A stretch of 8,349 bases of DNA from a virus. Its lineage: Monodnaviria; Loebvirae; Hofneiviricota; Faserviricetes; Tubulavirales; Inoviridae. The notes beneath the pieces are model-generated. The model saw only the letters and a program-made list of their open reading frames with translations, had not been told where the DNA came from and ran no database searches. The position numbers and the translations under genes are program-made. Below are positions 766 through 8,349 of the stretch, piece by piece (position 1 is the stretch's first letter; every line of letters begins with the position of its first letter). The DNA lies in the IMG/VR virus record IMGVR_UViG_2718218102_000001. The stretch is one strand, 5' to 3'.

Positions 766-863
766 TTGGTGCGCATAATGTTCGACTCGTTATGTTGAAA
801 AGGCCGCTGCGATAATTGAATCCCGCAGCGGCCTCTTTAGCATAACGTCATTGTGCGAACCAA
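766..863. other. dif-like Xer recombination site pair in inverted orientation around a palindrome (candidate folded attP or prophage left junction)
   Basis: 768-778 GGTGCGCATAA equals the E. coli dif XerC arm, and with TG at 779-780 gives a 13-nt exact match to dif. 790-800 TTATGTTGAAA matches the dif XerD arm TTATGTTAAAT at 9/11. The spacer 779-789 is 11 nt, not 6. 801-811 and 824-834 form a perfect 11-bp inverted repeat with a 12-nt loop. On the minus strand 861-835 reads GGTTCGCACAA-TGACG-TTATGCTAAAG, a second dif-like site. In single-stranded form 768-778 pairs with 851-861 (9/11) and 790-800 with 835-845 (8/11), leaving an asymmetric 11 vs 5 nt internal loop. Confidence 0.6.
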
Positions 864-2271: not shown

Positions 2272-2440
2272 TTTTTACGCTCGTTCAATGCAATATTTGA
2301 AGTGAGTATACATGCTCATGAACTCATATCATCCAAGCCTCTTGAACTCACTAGCTCACTGATGTAATGTTAAAACACTAATGAACTACTGAACTCATGT
2401 GTTAGTAAGTCGTCATTTTTGCAATTTTGAGGATTTATTC
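2272..2440. promoter_or_regulatory. divergent promoter/operator region with iterated motifs; possible (+) strand origin
   Basis: Four copies of TGAACT(C/A) at 2319, 2343, 2382 and 2390. CTCACT is repeated at 2347 and 2355. Candidate sigma70 promoter for gII: TTGAAC (2342-2347), 17 nt, TAATGT (2365-2370). GAGGA at 2429-2433 lies 7 nt before GTG 2441. Confidence 0.4.
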
Positions 2441-3493
2441 GTGATCGATTGGCTTACCGGGATTTTCCCTTGCACACACAAACCGCTTCCGGCGGGGAGT
2501 GTTGTCAGCGTTGATGCTGACGGTGCAATTGAGTGGGAAACCGTTAAGCGACTGACTGTTCGCGGCTCGCATGAAGCAACGATGAAAGTACGATCGATAG
2601 GATCTAATGGCGAAGGTAAAGCGACACATTTGTACATTGATGGTAATCCGTCCAAGTTTTTGCAGGGGCATTCTGTTGTTGGGTCGGATGATATACAAGG
2701 GCTCATGTTGACGGTCTATGCCAGGATTTTATCCTTATTGAATATTCCTCATGATTTAGCGTCTTATAAAGCTGTTATAGCAGGTCAGTATAAAATTTCA
2801 CGTGTTGACATTAATTACATGTATTCATTATCTACGCTAGAAAATGTCAGATCATGGCTTTATGCCGCCGAATTTAAAGCTAAAACACGCCATGGTCGCG
2901 CATGTGGGAAAGGCGGTACAGTTTATTTAGGTAAAAACTCCCGTCGATGGAGTCTGAAATTTTATTCAAAATATGATGAACACGTTTCGGGTAAAAAAGG
3001 GCACCAGATAGCCGAAGATTTTGTACGAGCCGGGTTACTGGACTGGACGAAAGATAAATTACGTATTGAATTAACATTAAGAACAACTGAGCTTATTGAT
3101 TTAAATTTAACGCTTGGCGCTAACTGGAATATGAAAACACCACGTCAATTATTCTCTGAATATGTAGGGAGAATAGAAATGAATCAGAATGCTATTTTAA
3201 GTGATGAAAAAATAACGAAACTGCCAAGAAAAATACAGTCAACTTATTTACTTTGGAAACAAGGGGCTAACATGAAAGAAATGTTACCTCATAACACTTT
3301 TTATCGCCATAGAAGAGAATTGCTTTCGTTCGGTATCGATATTAATTTCTATTGTGATTCACCAGACTCTAATAACGTTGTTCCGCTAATAAGAACGCTG
3401 GAAGCCAAGCCAGTGGAAATCCCCTTATGGATTTATGAGAAAGGTTTTATTTTCGATTACAACCGTATTTCGCACGCCAGTAGCTGGCATTAA
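2441..3493 (+). CDS. gII: replication initiation (rolling-circle nickase) protein, Ff gene II-like (about 350 aa)
   Basis: N-terminus (M)IDWLTG resembles Ff pII MIDMLVL; KFLQGHSVVG resembles KVLQGHNVFG; C-terminal NNVVPLIR resembles NNVVPLVR (M13 recalled from memory). GTG 2441 chosen over GTG 2399 because of the GAGGA RBS. Stop TAA 3491-3493. Confidence 0.75.
   Translation: MIDWLTGIFPCTHKPLPAGSVVSVDADGAIEWETVKRLTVRGSHEATMKVRSIGSNGEGKATHLYIDGNPSKFLQGHSVVGSDDIQGLMLTVYARILSLLNIPHDLASYKAVIAGQYKISRVDINYMYSLSTLENVRSWLYAAEFKAKTRHGRACGKGGTVYLGKNSRRWSLKFYSKYDEHVSGKKGHQIAEDFVRAGLLDWTKDKLRIELTLRTTELIDLNLTLGANWNMKTPRQLFSEYVGRIEMNQNAILSDEKITKLPRKIQSTYLLWKQGANMKEMLPHNTFYRHRRELLSFGIDINFYCDSPDSNNVVPLIRTLEAKPVEIPLWIYEKGFIFDYNRISHASSWH
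3179..3493 (+). CDS. gX: gene X-like product from an in-frame internal start within gII (104 aa)
   Basis: In-frame ATG at 3179 preceded by AGGGAG with 7 nt spacing. Context IEMNQNAILSDEK aligns with the Ff pX start region DSMNIYDDSAVLD. Confidence 0.5.
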   Translation: MNQNAILSDEKITKLPRKIQSTYLLWKQGANMKEMLPHNTFYRHRRELLSFGIDINFYCDSPDSNNVVPLIRTLEAKPVEIPLWIYEKGFIFDYNRISHASSWH

Positions 3494-3504: not shown

Positions 3505-3822
3505 ATGTCTAATTATGGTCTTTTCGTTAAGGGTAAAATGTTGGGAGCCCGCCAACGTAATAAAGTTAATGGTCAGGGCTATTATAATGAAATTGGTATT
3601 GGCCTTGAAATACCTGATGGTTTTGGTGGTACAAAGCAGGATCAAATTATTATTCGAGTTTCTCAGACTCTCGTTAACGCAGGTCTAATGAACCAGGCGA
3701 ATGCTTTCATTGGGAAATTAGTTCAAATTCCTGTCTATGTCCGTGCGTGGTCAATGGAGGGTAGGGAAGGTGTAACTTATAATGTTTCTTCCGATGGTGG
3801 CATCGCAGAGATCAAAGGTTAA
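3505..3822 (+). CDS. putative ssDNA-binding protein in the gene V position (105 aa)
   Basis: ATG 3505 with AGGAA RBS at 6 nt spacing, 11 nt after the gII stop and 2 nt before gVII. Assignment is by position only; I see no obvious similarity to Ff pV. Confidence 0.5.
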   Translation: MSNYGLFVKGKMLGARQRNKVNGQGYYNEIGIGLEIPDGFGGTKQDQIIIRVSQTLVNAGLMNQANAFIGKLVQIPVYVRAWSMEGREGVTYNVSSDGGIAEIKG

Positions 3823-3824
3823 AT

Positions 3825-3911
3825 ATGGACGATGTTATTCAAATTTTGATAGCGTCTGGCATCGTTATTTCTTTTGGCCTCGGCGCGATTACTGCGGGGG
3901 TCTTTCGTTAA
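3825..3911 (+). CDS. gVII: minor coat protein pVII-like (28 aa)
   Basis: Not in the ORF track (too short). Hand translation gives MDDVIQILIASGIVISFGLGAITAGVFR, hydrophobic with a GxxxAG motif like Ff pVII. Stop TAA 3909-3911 overlaps the next ATG (TAATG). Confidence 0.6.
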   Translation: MDDVIQILIASGIVISFGLGAITAGVFR

Positions 3912-4006
3912 TGTATATCGTTTATTTCTTCGGGGCTTATACCTTTGGTTTTGCCCTTTTCTATGCGGTCGGTTCATTTAAATCATTTTCTGACCGATTA
4001 ATGTAA
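3911..4006 (+). CDS. gIX: minor coat protein pIX-like (31 aa)
   Basis: ATG 3911 overlaps the gVII stop. Product MYIVYFFGAYTFGFALFYAVGSFKSFSDRLM is hydrophobic and ends RLM, like Ff pIX. It corresponds to the C-terminal part of track ORF 3782..4006. Confidence 0.6.
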   Translation: MYIVYFFGAYTFGFALFYAVGSFKSFSDRLM

Positions 4007-4025
4007 CCTTAATGGAGTTATTCCT

Positions 4026-4268
4026 ATGAAAATTCTGTCTACTGTTAAATATAAAGTTGCTCTGGCTTCAACTGCGCTTTTTGTTTCTGCAAGTTCTTTT
4101 GCGGCTGAAGGCGCTACAGGTGGTACTGATTATGCAGGTCAGGCAATGGATGCTTTGTTGACTCAGGCAAATGATCTCATTGGTAAAGTATGGCCTGTTG
4201 TTGTGGCTGTGGTTGGCGCTGGGCTTGCCATTCGTATTTTCAAAAAATTCTCTTCAAAAGCGGTTTGA
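4026..4268 (+). CDS. gVIII: major coat protein pVIII precursor (80 aa)
   Basis: GGAG RBS 8 nt upstream. Signal peptide ending SFA|AEG, acidic N-terminus, hydrophobic core, basic C-terminus [12 protein letters not shown] typical of Ff/IKe-class major coat proteins. Confidence 0.9.
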
Positions 4269-4277
4269 ATTTCACTC

Positions 4278-4300
4278 AGGGGCACTCGTTGCCCCTTTAT
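4278..4300 (+). terminator. rho-independent terminator after gVIII
   Basis: AGGGGCA (4278-4284), loop CTCGT, TGCCCCT (4290-4296), then TTATT. Ff phages have a strong terminator at this position (established knowledge). Confidence 0.65.
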
Positions 4301-4314
4301 TAAAGCGGGTTACT

Positions 4315-5640
4315 ATGAAAAGGAAAATATTAATTCTTTCCGCTGTCCTCATTTCTCCTTTTTCACATGCTGAGTCATGGGAAAGCATTACTAAATCCAC
4401 TTATCAAAGCTCTGCCTACGCTGAAAGTAAGCAAATAACCAATCAGGATGGCTCTAAGTCAACGGTTTACTATATTGATGCTGCTATGCAGGCCTCCGCT
4501 TGTCAGGGTGCTAAATCCAGTGCTCAGAGTGTATTTACTCAGGTTAAACCAACTTATGAGGGTATCTGGCCTGATTCTGAATTCCGTCTTGTTTTTACTG
4601 GTGATTGTACTTACAGCGATTCACCAGGGCAGAAGGATAAATATTGGTCTTTAACGGCTTATATTGTTGGTGATATTCAGCGTTCTGTTCCTGATGAAAA
4701 ACCTACTGACCCGACACCAGAAGAAATTTGTGAAGCGAAGCCGCCAGAAGAAGGTGTATTTAATAATGTTGATTCATATGATGGTGGTCGTTATATCTAC
4801 TATAACGGCTGTGAATATGAGGCTACTGGTGTCATTGTTTGTCAGGGTGATGGTACTGTTTGCGCTGCAACATGGAAGCCTACAGGTACTGTAGCTGACC
4901 CCTCTGATAAACCCTCAACCCCCCAAAATGGTGGTGGTGAGTCTGGCGGTGGTGAGTCTGGCGGTGGTGAGTCTGGCGGTGGTGAGTCCGGTGGCGGTAG
5001 TTCTGGCGGTGGTGAGTCCGGTGGCGGTAGTTCTGGCGGTGGTGAGTCCGGTGGCGGTAGTTCTGGCGGTGGTGAGTCCGGTGGCGGTAGTTCTGGCGGT
5101 GGCTTTAGTGGTTCCAGTCTTTCTAAAGGTGATATTCAGTCTGCTATCGAAGGTGCTTCACCCAAAATAGCCAGCGATATTCATGATAAATTAACGGAGA
5201 AAGACACTTCATCAGATGATAAAAAAAATGCCGATGAACAAACTAGGAATAATATAAATCGTCTTGACGATTCCATTAACAATCTTACGCGGGGGGCTGG
5301 CCGTTTTGCTGACCCTTCAGGTGGTGATTCTCGTTATGGAAAGGGCGACTCTGAATTAGATGGCGCTTCTACTTTGGCTGATTCTGAATTGGGAATTGAA
5401 AAGGATTCTCACGGTGCTTTATGGGAAGCATTTTTAAATAAAGGTGCTATGCTGCCTAATTTACCCAATGGTAACGGCTGCTCTGATTTTATTATTTTTC
5501 CCGGAGAGGTTTATCAGATTGATATTGGTTGCGATAAATTACTGACTATTAAAGATGTTCTTTCATGGGTTTTTTATTGCCTTACGTTCTGGTATGTCTT
5601 TACTTCTTTAACTTCATTGCTTCGCAAAGGGGGTGAGTGA
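4315..5640 (+). CDS. gIII: minor coat / adsorption protein pIII (about 441 aa)
   Basis: Start set at the in-frame ATG 4315 giving signal peptide [19 protein letters not shown]; the track ORF begins upstream inside gVIII. Cys-rich N-terminal domain, long Gly-rich linker, and a C-terminal anchor resembling the M13 pIII C-terminus (CDK...YVF...LRxK). Stop TGA 5638-5640 overlaps the gVI ATG. Confidence 0.9.
4936..5100 (+). repeat. in-frame tandem repeat, 11 copies of a 15-nt unit, encoding the Gly-rich pIII linker
   Basis: GGTGAGTCTGGCGGT x3 (4936-4980), then a 30-nt unit GGTGAGTCCGGTGGCGGTAGTTCTGGCGGT x4 (4981-5100). Encodes alternating GGGES and GGGSS. Confidence 0.9.
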
Positions 5641-5981
5641 TGCCTTTATTATTAGGTATTCCTGCATTGTTGCGTTTTCTTATTGGTCTTGTTCCTTTGT
5701 TTATTGGCTATGTGGCGAGTTTTTTAGCTCGACTTGCTACCAGAACAGGATTAATCGCCTTTGCATTGGTCGCATTAATTACAACAACTGTTACGCTTTT
5801 AATGCAGTACCTTGCTGAGGTCATGTATAACGGTTTACCTGCTGATTTCTCCCATTTAATGGCGTCTGTATTGCCTGACCATTTTCAGGCGTGTGTTAAC
5901 GTTATTATGGTTACTCGTATCAGTGTTTTTGTTTTCGATTTAAAACAAAAATTTCTTGATTATGCAAACAGGGTGATTTAA
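5640..5981 (+). CDS. gVI: minor coat protein pVI (113 aa)
   Basis: [17 protein letters not shown]... resembles M13 pVI MPVLLGIPLLLRFLG... (recalled). ATG 5640 overlaps the gIII stop (TGATG); the track used GTG 5637. Stop TAA 5979-5981 abuts the gI ATG. Confidence 0.85.
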   Translation: MPLLLGIPALLRFLIGLVPLFIGYVASFLARLATRTGLIAFALVALITTTVTLLMQYLAEVMYNGLPADFSHLMASVLPDHFQACVNVIMVTRISVFVFDLKQKFLDYANRVI

Positions 5982-7076
5982 ATGGCGGTTCATGTAGTAA
6001 CAGGCAAATTAGGCTCAGGCAAGACACTTGTTAGTGTTTCCAGAATACAGGAAAGACTTGCTAAGGGTTGTCCTGTTGCCACTAATCTTGATCTTAAATT
6101 GCATAATATGCCTATGGTTGGGCGTTATGCGAAAAAAACGCGCGTTATTCGCATTCCTGACAAGCCTTCATTAAATGATTTACTTGCTATTGGTATTGGG
6201 AATACATCTTACGATGAATCCCGTAATGGCCTCCTTGTACTTGATGAATGTGGTACTTGGTTTAATTCCCGCTCATGGGGTGATAAAGACAGACAACCTG
6301 TTATTGACTGGTTTTTACATGCCAGAAAATTAGGCTGGGATATTATATTTTTGATTCAGGATATTTCGATAATGGATAAGCAAGCTCGTCTGGCGCTTGC
6401 TGAGCATGTTGTTTATTGTCGCCGTTCAGATAAATTAAACATTCCTTTTGTTGGCTCCATTATGAATTTGGTTTCAGGGGCGCGATTTTCTTTACCAAAG
6501 GTACACTTTGGCATTGTCAAATATGGTGATAACGTTAATTCAATTACTGTTGATAAATGGATATACACCGGAAAATCATTATATTCCGCCTACAATACAA
6601 AACAGGTTTTTACTGATAACTATCCGCATGGTGCTTATTCGCTTTTGCCACCATTTATCACGCACGGTCAATTTTCTGTTCACAGAGGATTTAATTATTA
6701 TATGCGCCTCACGAAAATTTATTTTCGCAAATCGAACCGTCTTATATTAATGCTTTCTTTTTTGGCGCTGGGGCTTGCGCTTGGTTTCTGGCTCCAGTCT
6801 GGAAAGAATGTTGATGAAATCTCCGCTATTAAATCTGCTTATGCTGAACAGGCGAGGGCGGTAACGCCTGATTCGTCCAGTGACTTACCCCGACTTTCTA
6901 TTAATTCTTTTTCACAACTTGGCTTTGACGTTTCCGTTACGTTTGTTGATGCAAAAGGTACGAAATATCAGTATTTTGATTTGATTAAAGATGGTTATTC
7001 CGTTGATATTAAAGATGCCTGTCGTGTTGTTATTAGAAAAGGCCGTTATTTACAGACTGTTATCTGTCAGGAGTAA
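5982..7076 (+). CDS. gI: assembly ATPase pI (Zot-like), 364 aa
   Basis: Walker A motif GKLGSGKT at residues 8-15. Long colinear similarity to M13 pI (MAVYFVTGKLGSGKTLVSV..., LLVLDECGTWFN..., FLHARKLGWDIIFL...; recalled). C-terminal membrane segment. Confidence 0.9.
   Translation: MAVHVVTGKLGSGKTLVSVSRIQERLAKGCPVATNLDLKLHNMPMVGRYAKKTRVIRIPDKPSLNDLLAIGIGNTSYDESRNGLLVLDECGTWFNSRSWGDKDRQPVIDWFLHARKLGWDIIFLIQDISIMDKQARLALAEHVVYCRRSDKLNIPFVGSIMNLVSGARFSLPKVHFGIVKYGDNVNSITVDKWIYTGKSLYSAYNTKQVFTDNYPHGAYSLLPPFITHGQFSVHRGFNYYMRLTKIYFRKSNRLILMLSFLALGLALGFWLQSGKNVDEISAIKSAYAEQARAVTPDSSSDLPRLSINSFSQLGFDVSVTFVDAKGTKYQYFDLIKDGYSVDIKDACRVVIRKGRYLQTVICQE
6702..7076 (+). CDS. gXI: pXI-like product from an in-frame internal start within gI (124 aa)
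   Basis: In-frame ATG at 6702 (pI residue 241, the same position as the M13 gene XI start), just before the TM segment LILMLSFLALGLALGFW. AGAGGA lies 12 nt upstream. Confidence 0.5.
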   Translation: MRLTKIYFRKSNRLILMLSFLALGLALGFWLQSGKNVDEISAIKSAYAEQARAVTPDSSSDLPRLSINSFSQLGFDVSVTFVDAKGTKYQYFDLIKDGYSVDIKDACRVVIRKGRYLQTVICQE

Positions 7077-7083
7077 TATTATT

Positions 7084-8349
7084 ATGCGCTCTGTTATTGT
7101 TGCTTTTTTATTTGCCTGTTCATTCTGCGTTTCTGCTGAAACTGTTAATTTAAACAATTCATCTGTTCGCTCATTTGTTCAGTGGTATTCTTCAAAAACT
7201 GGCAAGCCTGTTATTGTTAATCCTGATATTAAAGGAAACGTAACCGTATTTAATGCTGATGTTAATCCAACAAATATTGATGATTTCTTTAAGTCTGTTC
7301 TGAATGCTAACGGTTTTGTCATGCTTTCTGGCAATCCTGCGGTAGTCTCTTTGCCGTCTAAATTACCTTCACAGATGGTTTCGGATTCCGATGATTCTGA
7401 TAACCAGTCTTATGATACTTTTCCTTCTGAGCCATCTTACCAGCCAGTACCTGTGGCGCTTACGGTCAGAAATTTTAAGCTGACAAAAGTTAGATCGTCC
7501 GATGTTCAGCAACTGATTAAAATTTATCTTGATTCTAATGGTGGTGGTAATGTCGTGGATTATCCAGGCAATAACTCGCTGATTGTTTCTGCGCCTGACG
7601 AGCTGCTGCCGGTTCTGTCCGATTTTATCAATTCTGTGGATGTTGCCCGCGATCAGGTTCTCATTCAGTCGCTGATGTTTGAAACCAGCTTGTCTGATGG
7701 CGTTGATTTATCGTTTGCGGCAGGTTCTGCATCCGGTCATAAGGTTGCGGGGGGCTTTAATACTTCTGCACTGGGTAGCGCTCTTTCTACGGCGGGCGGT
7801 TCTTTTGGTATTTTTGATGGTAACGTGTTGGCGCTGTCTCTGCGTGCTGTCCAGAGTAATTCACGCTCTAAGGTGATTTCAACGCCGCGTATTCTTACTC
7901 AGTCTGGTCAGACTGGTTACATTTCCGTAGGTAAGAATGTGCCGTTTATCACCGGAAAGGTAACGGGCGAATCTGCCGGGGTAAATAATCCGTTTCAGAC
8001 TATCGAGCGTCATGATGTTGGCGTTTCTCTCAAGGTAACGCCTGTTGTCATGGGTAACGGGCAACTAGTTCTGACTATCGACACTCGCGCTGATTCAATC
8101 AGCAATGATGATCAGGCATCCGATATTATTACTAATCAGCGCCAGATTCAGACGACAGTCCAGATTAAGGATGGTCAGACGTTGTTATTGGGGGGGCTTA
8201 TCGATTCATCGTTTAGCAATGCTGAGCGTTCAGTTCCAGTTATAAGTAAAATTCCTCTTATAGGCTGGATTTTCAGTAGCAAGGCAGACAGCAATGAACA
8301 GCGTATTATGTATATTTTGCTTACAGCACATATCATTCGTCCACTTTGA
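7084..8349 (+). CDS. gIV: outer-membrane secretin pIV (about 421 aa)
   Basis: Start set at ATG 7084 giving signal peptide MRSVIVAFLFACSFCVSA|ET; the track ORF starts upstream inside gI. Strong similarity to M13 pIV throughout (NVPFITGKVTGESAGVNNPFQTIER, DGQTLLLGGL, SKIPLIGWIFSS). Stop TGA 8347-8349 is the window end. Confidence 0.9.
   Translation: MRSVIVAFLFACSFCVSAETVNLNNSSVRSFVQWYSSKTGKPVIVNPDIKGNVTVFNADVNPTNIDDFFKSVLNANGFVMLSGNPAVVSLPSKLPSQMVSDSDDSDNQSYDTFPSEPSYQPVPVALTVRNFKLTKVRSSDVQQLIKIYLDSNGGGNVVDYPGNNSLIVSAPDELLPVLSDFINSVDVARDQVLIQSLMFETSLSDGVDLSFAAGSASGHKVAGGFNTSALGSALSTAGGSFGIFDGNVLALSLRAVQSNSRSKVISTPRILTQSGQTGYISVGKNVPFITGKVTGESAGVNNPFQTIERHDVGVSLKVTPVVMGNGQLVLTIDTRADSISNDDQASDIITNQRQIQTTVQIKDGQTLLLGGLIDSSFSNAERSVPVISKIPLIGWIFSSKADSNEQRIMYILLTAHIIRPL

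Follow-up and report, generated by a model that had tools for sequence, protein, structure and literature searches.

A probable CTXΦ-type folded attachment site in a CUS-1/YpfΦ-like filamentous phage

How does a filamentous phage without a recognizable recombinase gene enter the chromosome of its host? The question is raised by an inovirus sequence of 8349 nt (IMG/VR record IMGVR_UViG_2718218102_000001; “the window” below means this whole stretch), in which none of the open reading frames (ORFs) searched in Pfam, NCBIfam, and PHROGs matched an integrase or any other family of recombinases, and in which positions 766–863 twice resemble dif, the chromosomal target of XerC and XerD, two recombinases of the host. 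Our analysis makes it highly probable that 766–863 is the attachment site, attP(+), of a CUS-1/YpfΦ-like phage, the + strand of which would fold into a mimic of dif and so allow XerC and XerD to insert the phage in the manner of CTXΦ. A folded attP of this type had been put forward in the original prediction, and the idea gained support from the precise insertion of related prophages in dif, the location of both dif-like sites at the prophage left end, the position of the crossover, covariation within the fold, a bias toward the + strand, and the lack of a recombinase gene. Overall, every sequence feature used to test for membership among the CTX-type integrative mobile elements exploiting Xer recombination (IMEXs) was present.

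The XerC arm, spacer, XerD-like arm, hairpin, and inverted second site that had been described for this region could all be located in the sequence. The first site, attP1 (768–800, + strand), opens with an XerC-binding arm, GGTGCGCATAA (768–778), that matches the E. coli dif arm at 11 of 11 positions, with the predicted XerC cleavage falling after A778; the exact match to dif runs on through TG (768–780), or one base further, to T781, when the third central base is included. The attP1 central region, TGTTCGACTCG (779–789, + strand), is 11 nt long and shares its first three bases, TGT, with the TGTATA of dif, while its XerD side, ...ACTCG, has no match to the ...ATA of dif. It is followed by an XerD-like arm, TTATGTTGAAA (790–800, + strand; 9/11 to dif), and then by an inner hairpin (801–834), the strongest inverted repeat in the window, in which a perfect, G+C-rich stem of 11 bp (AGGCCGCTGCG, 801–811, with CGCAGCGGCCT, 824–834) surrounds a variable 12-nt loop and closes the fork on the XerD side. 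The second site, attP2, is inverted relative to the first (861–835, − strand), and consists of an XerD-like arm, TTATGCTAAAG (835–845; 9/11), that pairs with 790–800, a 5-nt central region, TGACG (846–850), that has 6 nt in the relatives L017, L018, and L042, and an XerC-like arm, GGTTCGCACAA (851–861; 9/11), prolonged to 863 by a 2-bp stem extension in which A862 and A863 pair with T766 and T767. As duplexes, both spacers are thus non-canonical, with 11 nt in attP1 and 5 nt in attP2 compared to 6 nt in dif. Directly 5′ of the XerC arm lies the conserved right end of the phage (…CCATCCTTACCATT; 742–767, + strand), and conservation among phages stops at the end of attP2, with divergence after about position 864. 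A chance resemblance to dif could be ruled out: across 1000 dinucleotide-preserving shuffles of the window, searched with ≤2 mismatches per arm and a spacer of 4–14 nt, single dif-like sites occurred at a mean of 0.011 and an inverted pair in none (0/1000), compared to two sites and one pair in the window itself.

Next, we evaluated whether the + strand would fold as proposed, i.e., with 9/11 and 8/11 paired arm positions and an asymmetric internal loop of 11 versus 5 nt. Counting Watson–Crick pairs alone reproduced these values exactly: the XerC arms form nine Watson–Crick pairs, one G·T pair, and one mismatch, and the XerD arms eight Watson–Crick pairs, two G·T pairs, and one mismatch. When positions 760–870 of the + strand were folded as single-stranded DNA (ssDNA), precisely the predicted forked hairpin was obtained as the minimum-free-energy structure (−30.2 kcal/mol, z = −6.85, 0/200 shuffles as good), and the module by itself (766–863) gave −29.6 kcal/mol (z = −7.24). 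In this in silico fold, one XerC and one XerD arm duplex are restored. Both ends of the attP1 central region are paired as well, T779 and G780 with A850 and C849, and C788 and G789 with G847 and C846, leaving the other 7 nt bulged.

If this module is an attachment site, its signature should be visible in integrated relatives. Chromosomal filamentous prophages of E. coli (in UM146, F11, and others) match the window at 97–99% identity over ~91% of its length, ≥80% of the window is covered in 44 complete genomes, and the UM146 and F11 prophages lie directly after hipBA, i.e., in the dif neighborhood. A composite of the host left flank, the 28-bp dif, and the host right flank was 100% identical over 328 nt to phage-free strains such as Nissle 1917 and ATCC 11775, and these prophages therefore represent precise insertions in dif. 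At the left junction, the host flank is followed by GGTGCGCATAA, the phage spacer, and the whole module, with homology to the window starting only at 766; both attP1 and attP2 are hence found at the prophage left end. The right junction reads ...CCATCCTTACCATT GGTGCGCATAA TGTATA TTATGTTAAAT and continues into host DNA, which constitutes a perfect regenerated dif. A dif-derived site had been anticipated at the end of the prophage opposite the module, and is indeed observed there, with the phage arm GGTGCGCATAA fused to TGTATA and TTATGTTAAAT. The same right end with a regenerated dif recurs in nine further loci, including one contig that carries the window’s own cargo genes, and of the 10 regenerated sites, 9 have the canonical phage end upstream of them and one (L019) has a near-identical version of it. 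Within tandem arrays, the phage–phage junctions are identical to the window.

The dif locus of F11 (L002 and L003; NZ_CP076123.1, about 1646600–1680000) holds at least four tandem filamentous prophages of two structural types. In UM146, a run of ambiguous bases covers the end of hipA and the left junction (L001 5760–6008; NC_017632.1, about 1980435–1980683), and its readable bases resemble a mixture of host and phage end, as if a tandem array had collapsed in assembly. A degenerate module that kept the first site and half of the hairpin and lost the second site (L011 4419–4500) lies ~1.5 kb from a perfect dif (5949), and is probably the remnant of a decayed prophage.

The polymorphisms among these junctions can be used to locate the crossover. 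A canonical phage end precedes 21 sites, of which 12 are modules and 9 are regenerated dif sites, and in every one of them the XerC arm is the GGTGCGCATAA of the phage. The variant XerC arms all follow non-phage flanks, namely AGTGCGCATAA (AGTG, nine cases), GATGCGCATAA (GATG), and, in Y. pestis, GGTGCACATAA. Even within a single prophage (L021), AGTG is found at the left end and GGTG at the right end. The XerC arm accompanies the sequence upstream of it, be this a host flank or a phage end. For the other side of the crossover, we relied on a chromosomal array (L051) with TGTACG in its first unit and, in its second unit, a module 100% identical to that of the window (TGTTCG, loop ATAATTGAATCC, and the window’s cargo): since the T782 and loop polymorphisms go with the downstream unit, the central region travels with the downstream phage. 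Judged from these sequence comparisons, strand exchange took place between arm position 6 and central position 4, i.e., at window 774–781, an interval that includes the canonical XerC cleavage point (778|779).

At several loci the host-side junction and the regenerated dif differ in their XerC arm (L016 1041/9783 in Y. pestis, L021 141/8385, and L017 5021/14173), with GGTGCACATAA (Yersinia) or AGTGCGCATAA on the host side and GGTGCGCATAA in the regenerated dif. As far as sequence can tell, integration appears to overwrite the XerC arm of the host with that of the phage. In Y. pestis, the A at arm position 6 is assigned to the host based on its host flank; a literature search for GGTGCACATAA as the presumed native Yersinia dif arm returned only irrelevant primer matches, PMC10354491 gives no dif sequence, and PMC2731167 lists a “dif” of Y. 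pestis CO92 whose arm is of the phage type.

We then examined how the fold is conserved across relatives of the phage. An exact search of viral contigs with the 33-nt attP1 string of the window gave no match, while a relaxation by one base and then a search for the architecture alone succeeded; together with relatives found in genomes via gII, this architecture-only pattern search of viral contigs yielded 31 distinct module variants from E. coli, Yersinia, Brenneria, and metagenomic hosts. When the forked hairpin was projected on the alignment of these variants, 95.3% of cells were standard pairs, compared to 28–55% when the partners were slid against each other. Changes on both sides of a pair were seen at 13 pairs, and the observed values were reached in 0/500 shuffles, although this count is not a probability, the variants being mutually related and the arm cores constant in the search pattern. 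None of the covarying positions is among the bases fixed in this way. Pairs of the inner stem show compensatory changes, with compensating indels in Brenneria, and covariation also extends to two pairs of the central region on its XerD side (CG/CG to AGA/TCT in L018). Spacer lengths are conserved across the 31 variants at 11/5, with 11/6 or 9/6 in remoter relatives, whereas spacer sequence is not: positions 4–9 of the attP1 spacer are free to vary while its 11-nt length is kept, the fourth central base can be A, G, T, or C, and the inner loop varies as well.

The variants also distinguish between the two strands. At arm positions without a Watson–Crick pair, the + strand would form 77 G·T pairs and 60 mismatches, compared to 22 G·T pairs and 115 mismatches for the − strand, and fold stability favored the + strand by 2.5–4.9 kcal/mol in 6/6 divergent variants. 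In addition, the XerC arm of attP1 follows the host: in the Brenneria phage it is GGTTCGCATAA, a Pectobacterium-type dif arm, so that the attP1 arm tracks host dif across genera. Remoter versions of the module were observed in Klebsiella spallanzanii (L017 5019–5142) and in L018 (1–110) and L042 (113–218), with 9/6 or 11/6 spacers and different inner hairpins. There, both XerD-like arms change in concert (CTATGT... in L017), and those of L042 are identical to the arms of CTXΦ (TTATGTTGAGG and TTATGTTACGG).

By analogy with CTXΦ, integration would proceed as follows. In the packaged + strand, the inverted dif-like half-modules attP1 (768–800) and attP2 (861–835) would anneal into a forked hairpin closed by the 801–834 stem-loop, offering one XerC and one XerD arm duplex with 11 nt opposite 5 nt between them. 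Host XerC and XerD would bind this dif mimic and synapse with chromosomal dif, after which XerC would cut behind A778 in the phage and behind the XerC arm of dif, and a single pair of strands would be exchanged, presumably stabilized by the shared TGT. The pseudo-Holliday junction formed in this way would then be resolved by replication, leaving an integrated prophage. In the predicted product, attP1 and attP2 lie at the left end as duplex DNA, where they are not expected to be Xer substrates because their spacers have 11 bp and 5 bp, and the right end regains a functional dif, which would make tandem arrays possible. The anatomy of the site, the dif target, the junction topology, and the crossover interval come directly from the analysis, as do the conservation and covariation of the fold, its bias toward the + strand, and the lack of a recombinase. 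By comparison, ssDNA as substrate, catalysis by XerC only, and irreversibility are what we infer, the first of these from spacer geometry, covariation, strand bias, and precedent.

Several points weigh against a folded ssDNA substrate, beyond the relatedness of the variants and the arm cores fixed in the search. Complementarity of the arms by itself would also be expected if both sites merely retained an Xer-binding consensus; arguments specific to folding come from the pairs at the spacer ends, from the inner stem, and from the bias between strands. The inner hairpin could have an additional role, as terminator or as packaging or replication signal. YpfΦ is reported to be mostly extrachromosomal in E. 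coli and Y. pseudotuberculosis (Derbise & Carniel, PMC4266046), and a superinfecting YpfΦ to favor insertion between the copies already present over the regenerated dif (PMC4266046); the simple model predicts neither. Finally, the junction topology would be identical if a double-stranded replicative form had recombined through attP1.

This last point leads to the alternative that survives best, a duplex integration of VGJΦ type in which the replicative form recombines via attP1 alone, and attP2 and the hairpin are incidental (e.g., a weak Xer site plus a terminator). Such a scheme would give the same crossover interval along with the same junctions, a free circular duplex form of the phage does exist, and the insertion of superinfecting YpfΦ between resident copies is left unexplained by the CTX model. 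Yet the geometry of the site is hard to reconcile with it, as the attP1 spacer has 11 bp compared to 6 in dif and to a center of about 7 bp in the 29-bp attP-VGJ, and the same geometric constraints leave the duplex sites of CTXΦ without function. No dif-like site with a 6–8-nt spacer exists in the window, even when up to five mismatches are allowed. Further evidence against this scheme is that attP2 and the unequal spacers are conserved across hosts although spacer sequence drifts, attP1 and attP2 covary, reaching into the spacer ends, and both the wobble pairs and the fold stability (6/6 variants for stability) favor the + strand. We consider this duplex route improbable. A canonical single duplex site of VGJ or TLC type was likewise rejected. 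The VGJ-type arrangement, one duplex dif-like site whose central region has roughly 7 bp, is absent from the window, which also shows neither the defective XerD arm nor the phage-encoded Xer activation factor of TLC-type elements, both of its sites having 9/11 XerD-like arms and a Pfam scan of the ORFs giving no match to a TLCΦ-like activation factor.

A second alternative takes the hairpin to be mainly a terminator, a packaging signal, or a complementary-strand origin, its likeness to dif to be coincidental, and integration to occur by another route, e.g., homologous recombination. The hairpin is located between convergent gene sets, its G+C-rich stem is followed by TTTTC on the − strand, and filamentous phages require hairpin signals on the + strand. 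Moreover, the hairpin and attP2 have been retained immediately downstream of a cargo gene in ~430 plasmids, the way a terminator would be. Coincidence, however, would have to account for an inverted dif-like pair that arose in 0/1000 shuffles, for prophages that end exactly inside dif-identical bases with dif regenerated, and for an XerC arm that follows host dif across genera, and other hairpins (at 1–39, after gIV, and at 380–424) are available for the proposed roles. It is thus very unlikely as a full explanation, while a second role of the inner stem is compatible with the folded attP(+): given its sequence, the hairpin may also terminate the convergent − strand cargo genes. A simple terminator scan did not flag it, the 12-nt loop exceeding the 8-nt limit of the scan. 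The two other hairpins are both strong and on the + strand, one directly after the gIV stop codon (1–39; TGGATAGCGGGTAGG / CCTGCTCGCTATCCA) and one after a 102-aa ORF (380–424; AACCCCGGACAGTGACAAAA / TTTTGTTAGTGTCCGGGGTT), and are candidates for a terminator, a packaging signal, or a complementary-strand origin.

The original prediction had also entertained that the copy in the window is the left junction between host and prophage, with positions 1–765 as dif-proximal host DNA, and an exact host-type XerC arm before a non-canonical spacer does resemble such a junction (L002 position 1828), but this can be dismissed with near certainty: 1–765 aligns to the phage right-end genes downstream of gIV in every prophage and is not found beside dif in phage-free genomes, window homology at true host junctions begins only at 766, position 8349 joins position 1 in tandem copies, and the same arrangement recurs at phage–phage junctions and in a free circular replicon of 7.9 kb. 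That replicon, a 7938-bp Salmonella circle annotated as a plasmid, has an arrangement identical to that of the window.

Whether such a mechanism had already been described for this lineage was left unanswered in the original prediction, and the literature (PMC3089051, PMC4246890, and PMC4266046) shows that it had. A CTX-type site is already known for the CUS-1/YpfΦ lineage, and the folded attP(+) of the window is not a new kind of system: CUS-1Φ and YpfΦ have been assigned to the CTX-type, ssDNA-integrating class (Das et al. 2011, PMC3089051; Das 2014, PMC4246890; Derbise & Carniel 2014, PMC4266046), an assignment for which PMC3089051 cites Val et al. 2005. They are said to have “features for direct ssDNA integration” (PMC3089051), are listed among the related members of the CTXΦ class (PMC4246890), and are termed enterobacterial IMEXs related to CTXΦ (PMC3442271). 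Throughout these papers (PMC4266046, PMC4246890, PMC3442271, and PMC3089051), the mechanism is proposed for YpfΦ and CUS-1Φ, not demonstrated. The comparative data presented here, i.e., covariation in the fork, wobble pairs on the + strand, and a crossover mapped to the XerC cleavage point, provide independent sequence-level support for this proposal, and extend the architecture to phages of Klebsiella, Salmonella, Brenneria, and other hosts.

CUS-1Φ of E. coli O18:K1:H7 and YpfΦ/CUS-2Φ of Yersinia pestis belong to the same phage family as the window. The module of the Y. pestis array (L016) is identical to that of the window except for one spacer base and the loop; compared to CUS-1Φ and YpfΦ, the window has T instead of A at the fourth central base (T782; TGTT vs TGTA), and its loop (ATAATTGAATCC) and the cargo module beside attP2 differ as well. 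In extra-intestinal E. coli K1 and in pandemic Y. pestis, prophages of this type have been connected with fitness (PMC4266046), and their entry into the terminus region, their stacking in arrays, and their import of cargo genes are governed by the attachment site.

The likeness to CTXΦ of Vibrio cholerae, whose mechanism goes back to Val et al. 2005 as summarized in PMC3089051 and PMC4246890, is one of logic rather than of sequence. In CTXΦ, attP1 is composed of AGTGCGTATTA, 12 nt, and TTATGTTGAGG, and attP2 of AATGCGTATTA, 7 nt, and TTATGTTACGG (PMC3089051), with an attP2 spacer of 5–7 nt. Each attP(+) thus combines two dif-like sites in inverted orientation, the spacer being long in attP1 and short in attP2 (12/7 in CTXΦ, 11/5 here). 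In both phages, TGT opens the central region and agrees with host dif on the side of the XerC arm, while TTATGTTGA is the start of the attP1 XerD arm, with a G·T wobble at arm position 8. The two phages also share the placement of both sites at one prophage end with dif regenerated at the other, tandem arrays, and the lack of a phage recombinase. In contrast, ~90 nt separate the two sites in CTXΦ compared to ~34 nt here, for a folded module of ~150 nt versus 98 nt, and the window has enterobacterial-type XerC arms and an Ff/IKe-like backbone with a gII of Phage_CRI/G2P_X_C type and its own gIV secretin. Beyond the logic of the site, no shared sequence was detectable between CTXΦ and the window phage. 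IMEXs of VGJΦ and TLCΦ type are, like the window, filamentous or satellite phages that integrate at dif by XerCD, but they use a single duplex site of 28–29 bp and are excisable, and TLCΦ differs further in an XerD-first exchange with its own activation factor.

Outside of the attachment site, the window is one complete, circularly permuted unit of a CUS-1/YpfΦ-like inovirus, as seen from its alignment to F11. In the F11 tandem array, window position 8349, the end of the gIV secretin stop codon, runs directly into window position 1, and positions 1–765 are therefore the phage right end; the earlier suggestion that they might be host DNA is refuted, since these are the right-end genes found downstream of gIV in every prophage. 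Gene order is alike in every relative examined, the gII protein is 85% identical to its Y. pestis copy, and gene order and nucleotide identity to the dif prophages of extra-intestinal pathogenic E. coli (ExPEC) and Y. pestis both place the window in the CUS-1Φ/YpfΦ lineage. The INPHARED phage collection contained no CUS-1/Ypf record, and gave only short gIV matches to IKe and to Erwinia PEar phages.

Two right-end ORFs follow gIV in the window, as in all integrated copies. The first encodes 102 aa (70–378, + strand; phrog_4115), and its position fits one of the two unassigned right-end ORFs of YpfΦ, YPO2280a/YPO2281 (PMC4266046); the second, of 77 aa with a CxxC…CxxC motif (496–729, + strand; phrog_5435), is the last gene before attP. 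Record H25 lists a “mobilome CxxCx(11)CxxC protein” under its match, which may be the 77-aa ORF. Beyond attP, a variable cargo and regulatory module of four ORFs (110, 137, 140, and 60 aa) occupies 873–2271 on the − strand, its attP2-proximal part being swapped among phage variants. The gII-type rolling-circle replication initiator (2399–3493, + strand; Phage_CRI 6e-69, G2P_X_C 5e-29) is followed by the core virion and assembly genes (3505–8349, all on the + strand): gV (3505–3822), gVIII (4026–4268), the gIII attachment protein (about 4315–5640), a DUF5455 gVI-like gene (5637–5981), gI/Zot (5982–7076), and the gIV secretin (about 7084–8349). Genes were identified with Pfam, NCBIfam, and PHROGs for gII, gV, gVIII, DUF5455, and the secretin, and with precomputed Pfam hits on identical genes in related contigs for Zot and the G3P attachment protein. 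As had been noted for this sequence, the core genes gII, gV, gVIII, gIII, gVI-like, gI/Zot, and gIV are all coded on the + strand, and because of this the + strand is taken to be the one that is packaged.

The boundary between attP2 and the cargo module stands out across relatives. From window position 864 to about 1570, and at the same position in L001–L013 and L050, sequences diverge completely right after the second site and carry differing − strand cargo, with products named in the records as death-on-curing family toxin, STM4504/CBY_0614, PD-(D/E)XK nuclease domain, helix-turn-helix, and ECs_2282 zinc-binding protein. The region directly after attP2 is a hotspot of cargo swapping; in CTXΦ, ctxAB occupies a comparable place next to attP. 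The window’s own cargo module was absent at high identity from complete E. coli genomes, and was found by a look-up of exact proteins.

The module is also seen away from its usual backbone. The second phage type in the F11 array shares with the window only 742–863, i.e., the module and ~25 nt upstream, and gII at 80% identity, which suggests that the attachment module is exchanged between phage backbones. In plasmids, ~430 records match window 791–862 (~72 nt at ~90% identity, covering the inner hairpin and the second dif-like site). The majority are conjugative, and most come from E. coli, Klebsiella, and Salmonella. A single one was inspected, the IncF plasmid p94EC-1 (L049 2501–2571; NZ_CP047577.1 15658–15728): the XerC arm of the first site is missing there, the match lies directly downstream of an “STM4504/CBY_0614 family” gene, and its appearance is that of a fossil phage left end that has been captured. 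Since the module is shared by structurally unrelated backbones in one dif array, forms the edge of a cargo hotspot, survives in plasmids as its hairpin and attP2 half together with a cargo gene, and appears to overwrite host arms, we tentatively raise the possibility, without holding it to be the likelier case, that these 98 nt and the ~25 nt upstream are a portable cassette, not a fixed part of one phage. If these features were general and functional, as opposed to by-products, the site would drive modular exchange among enterobacterial IMEXs and plasmids.

Finally, two of the contigs with related phages have titles that name improbable hosts for an enterobacterial phage, both from metagenome-assembled genomes (MAGs), Candidatus Nanosynbacter for L014 and Aerococcus for L018. 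These labels probably reflect contamination during metagenome binning, and in L014 an E. coli-type flank, CCTTGGTTTATGTT, lies immediately 5′ of dif.

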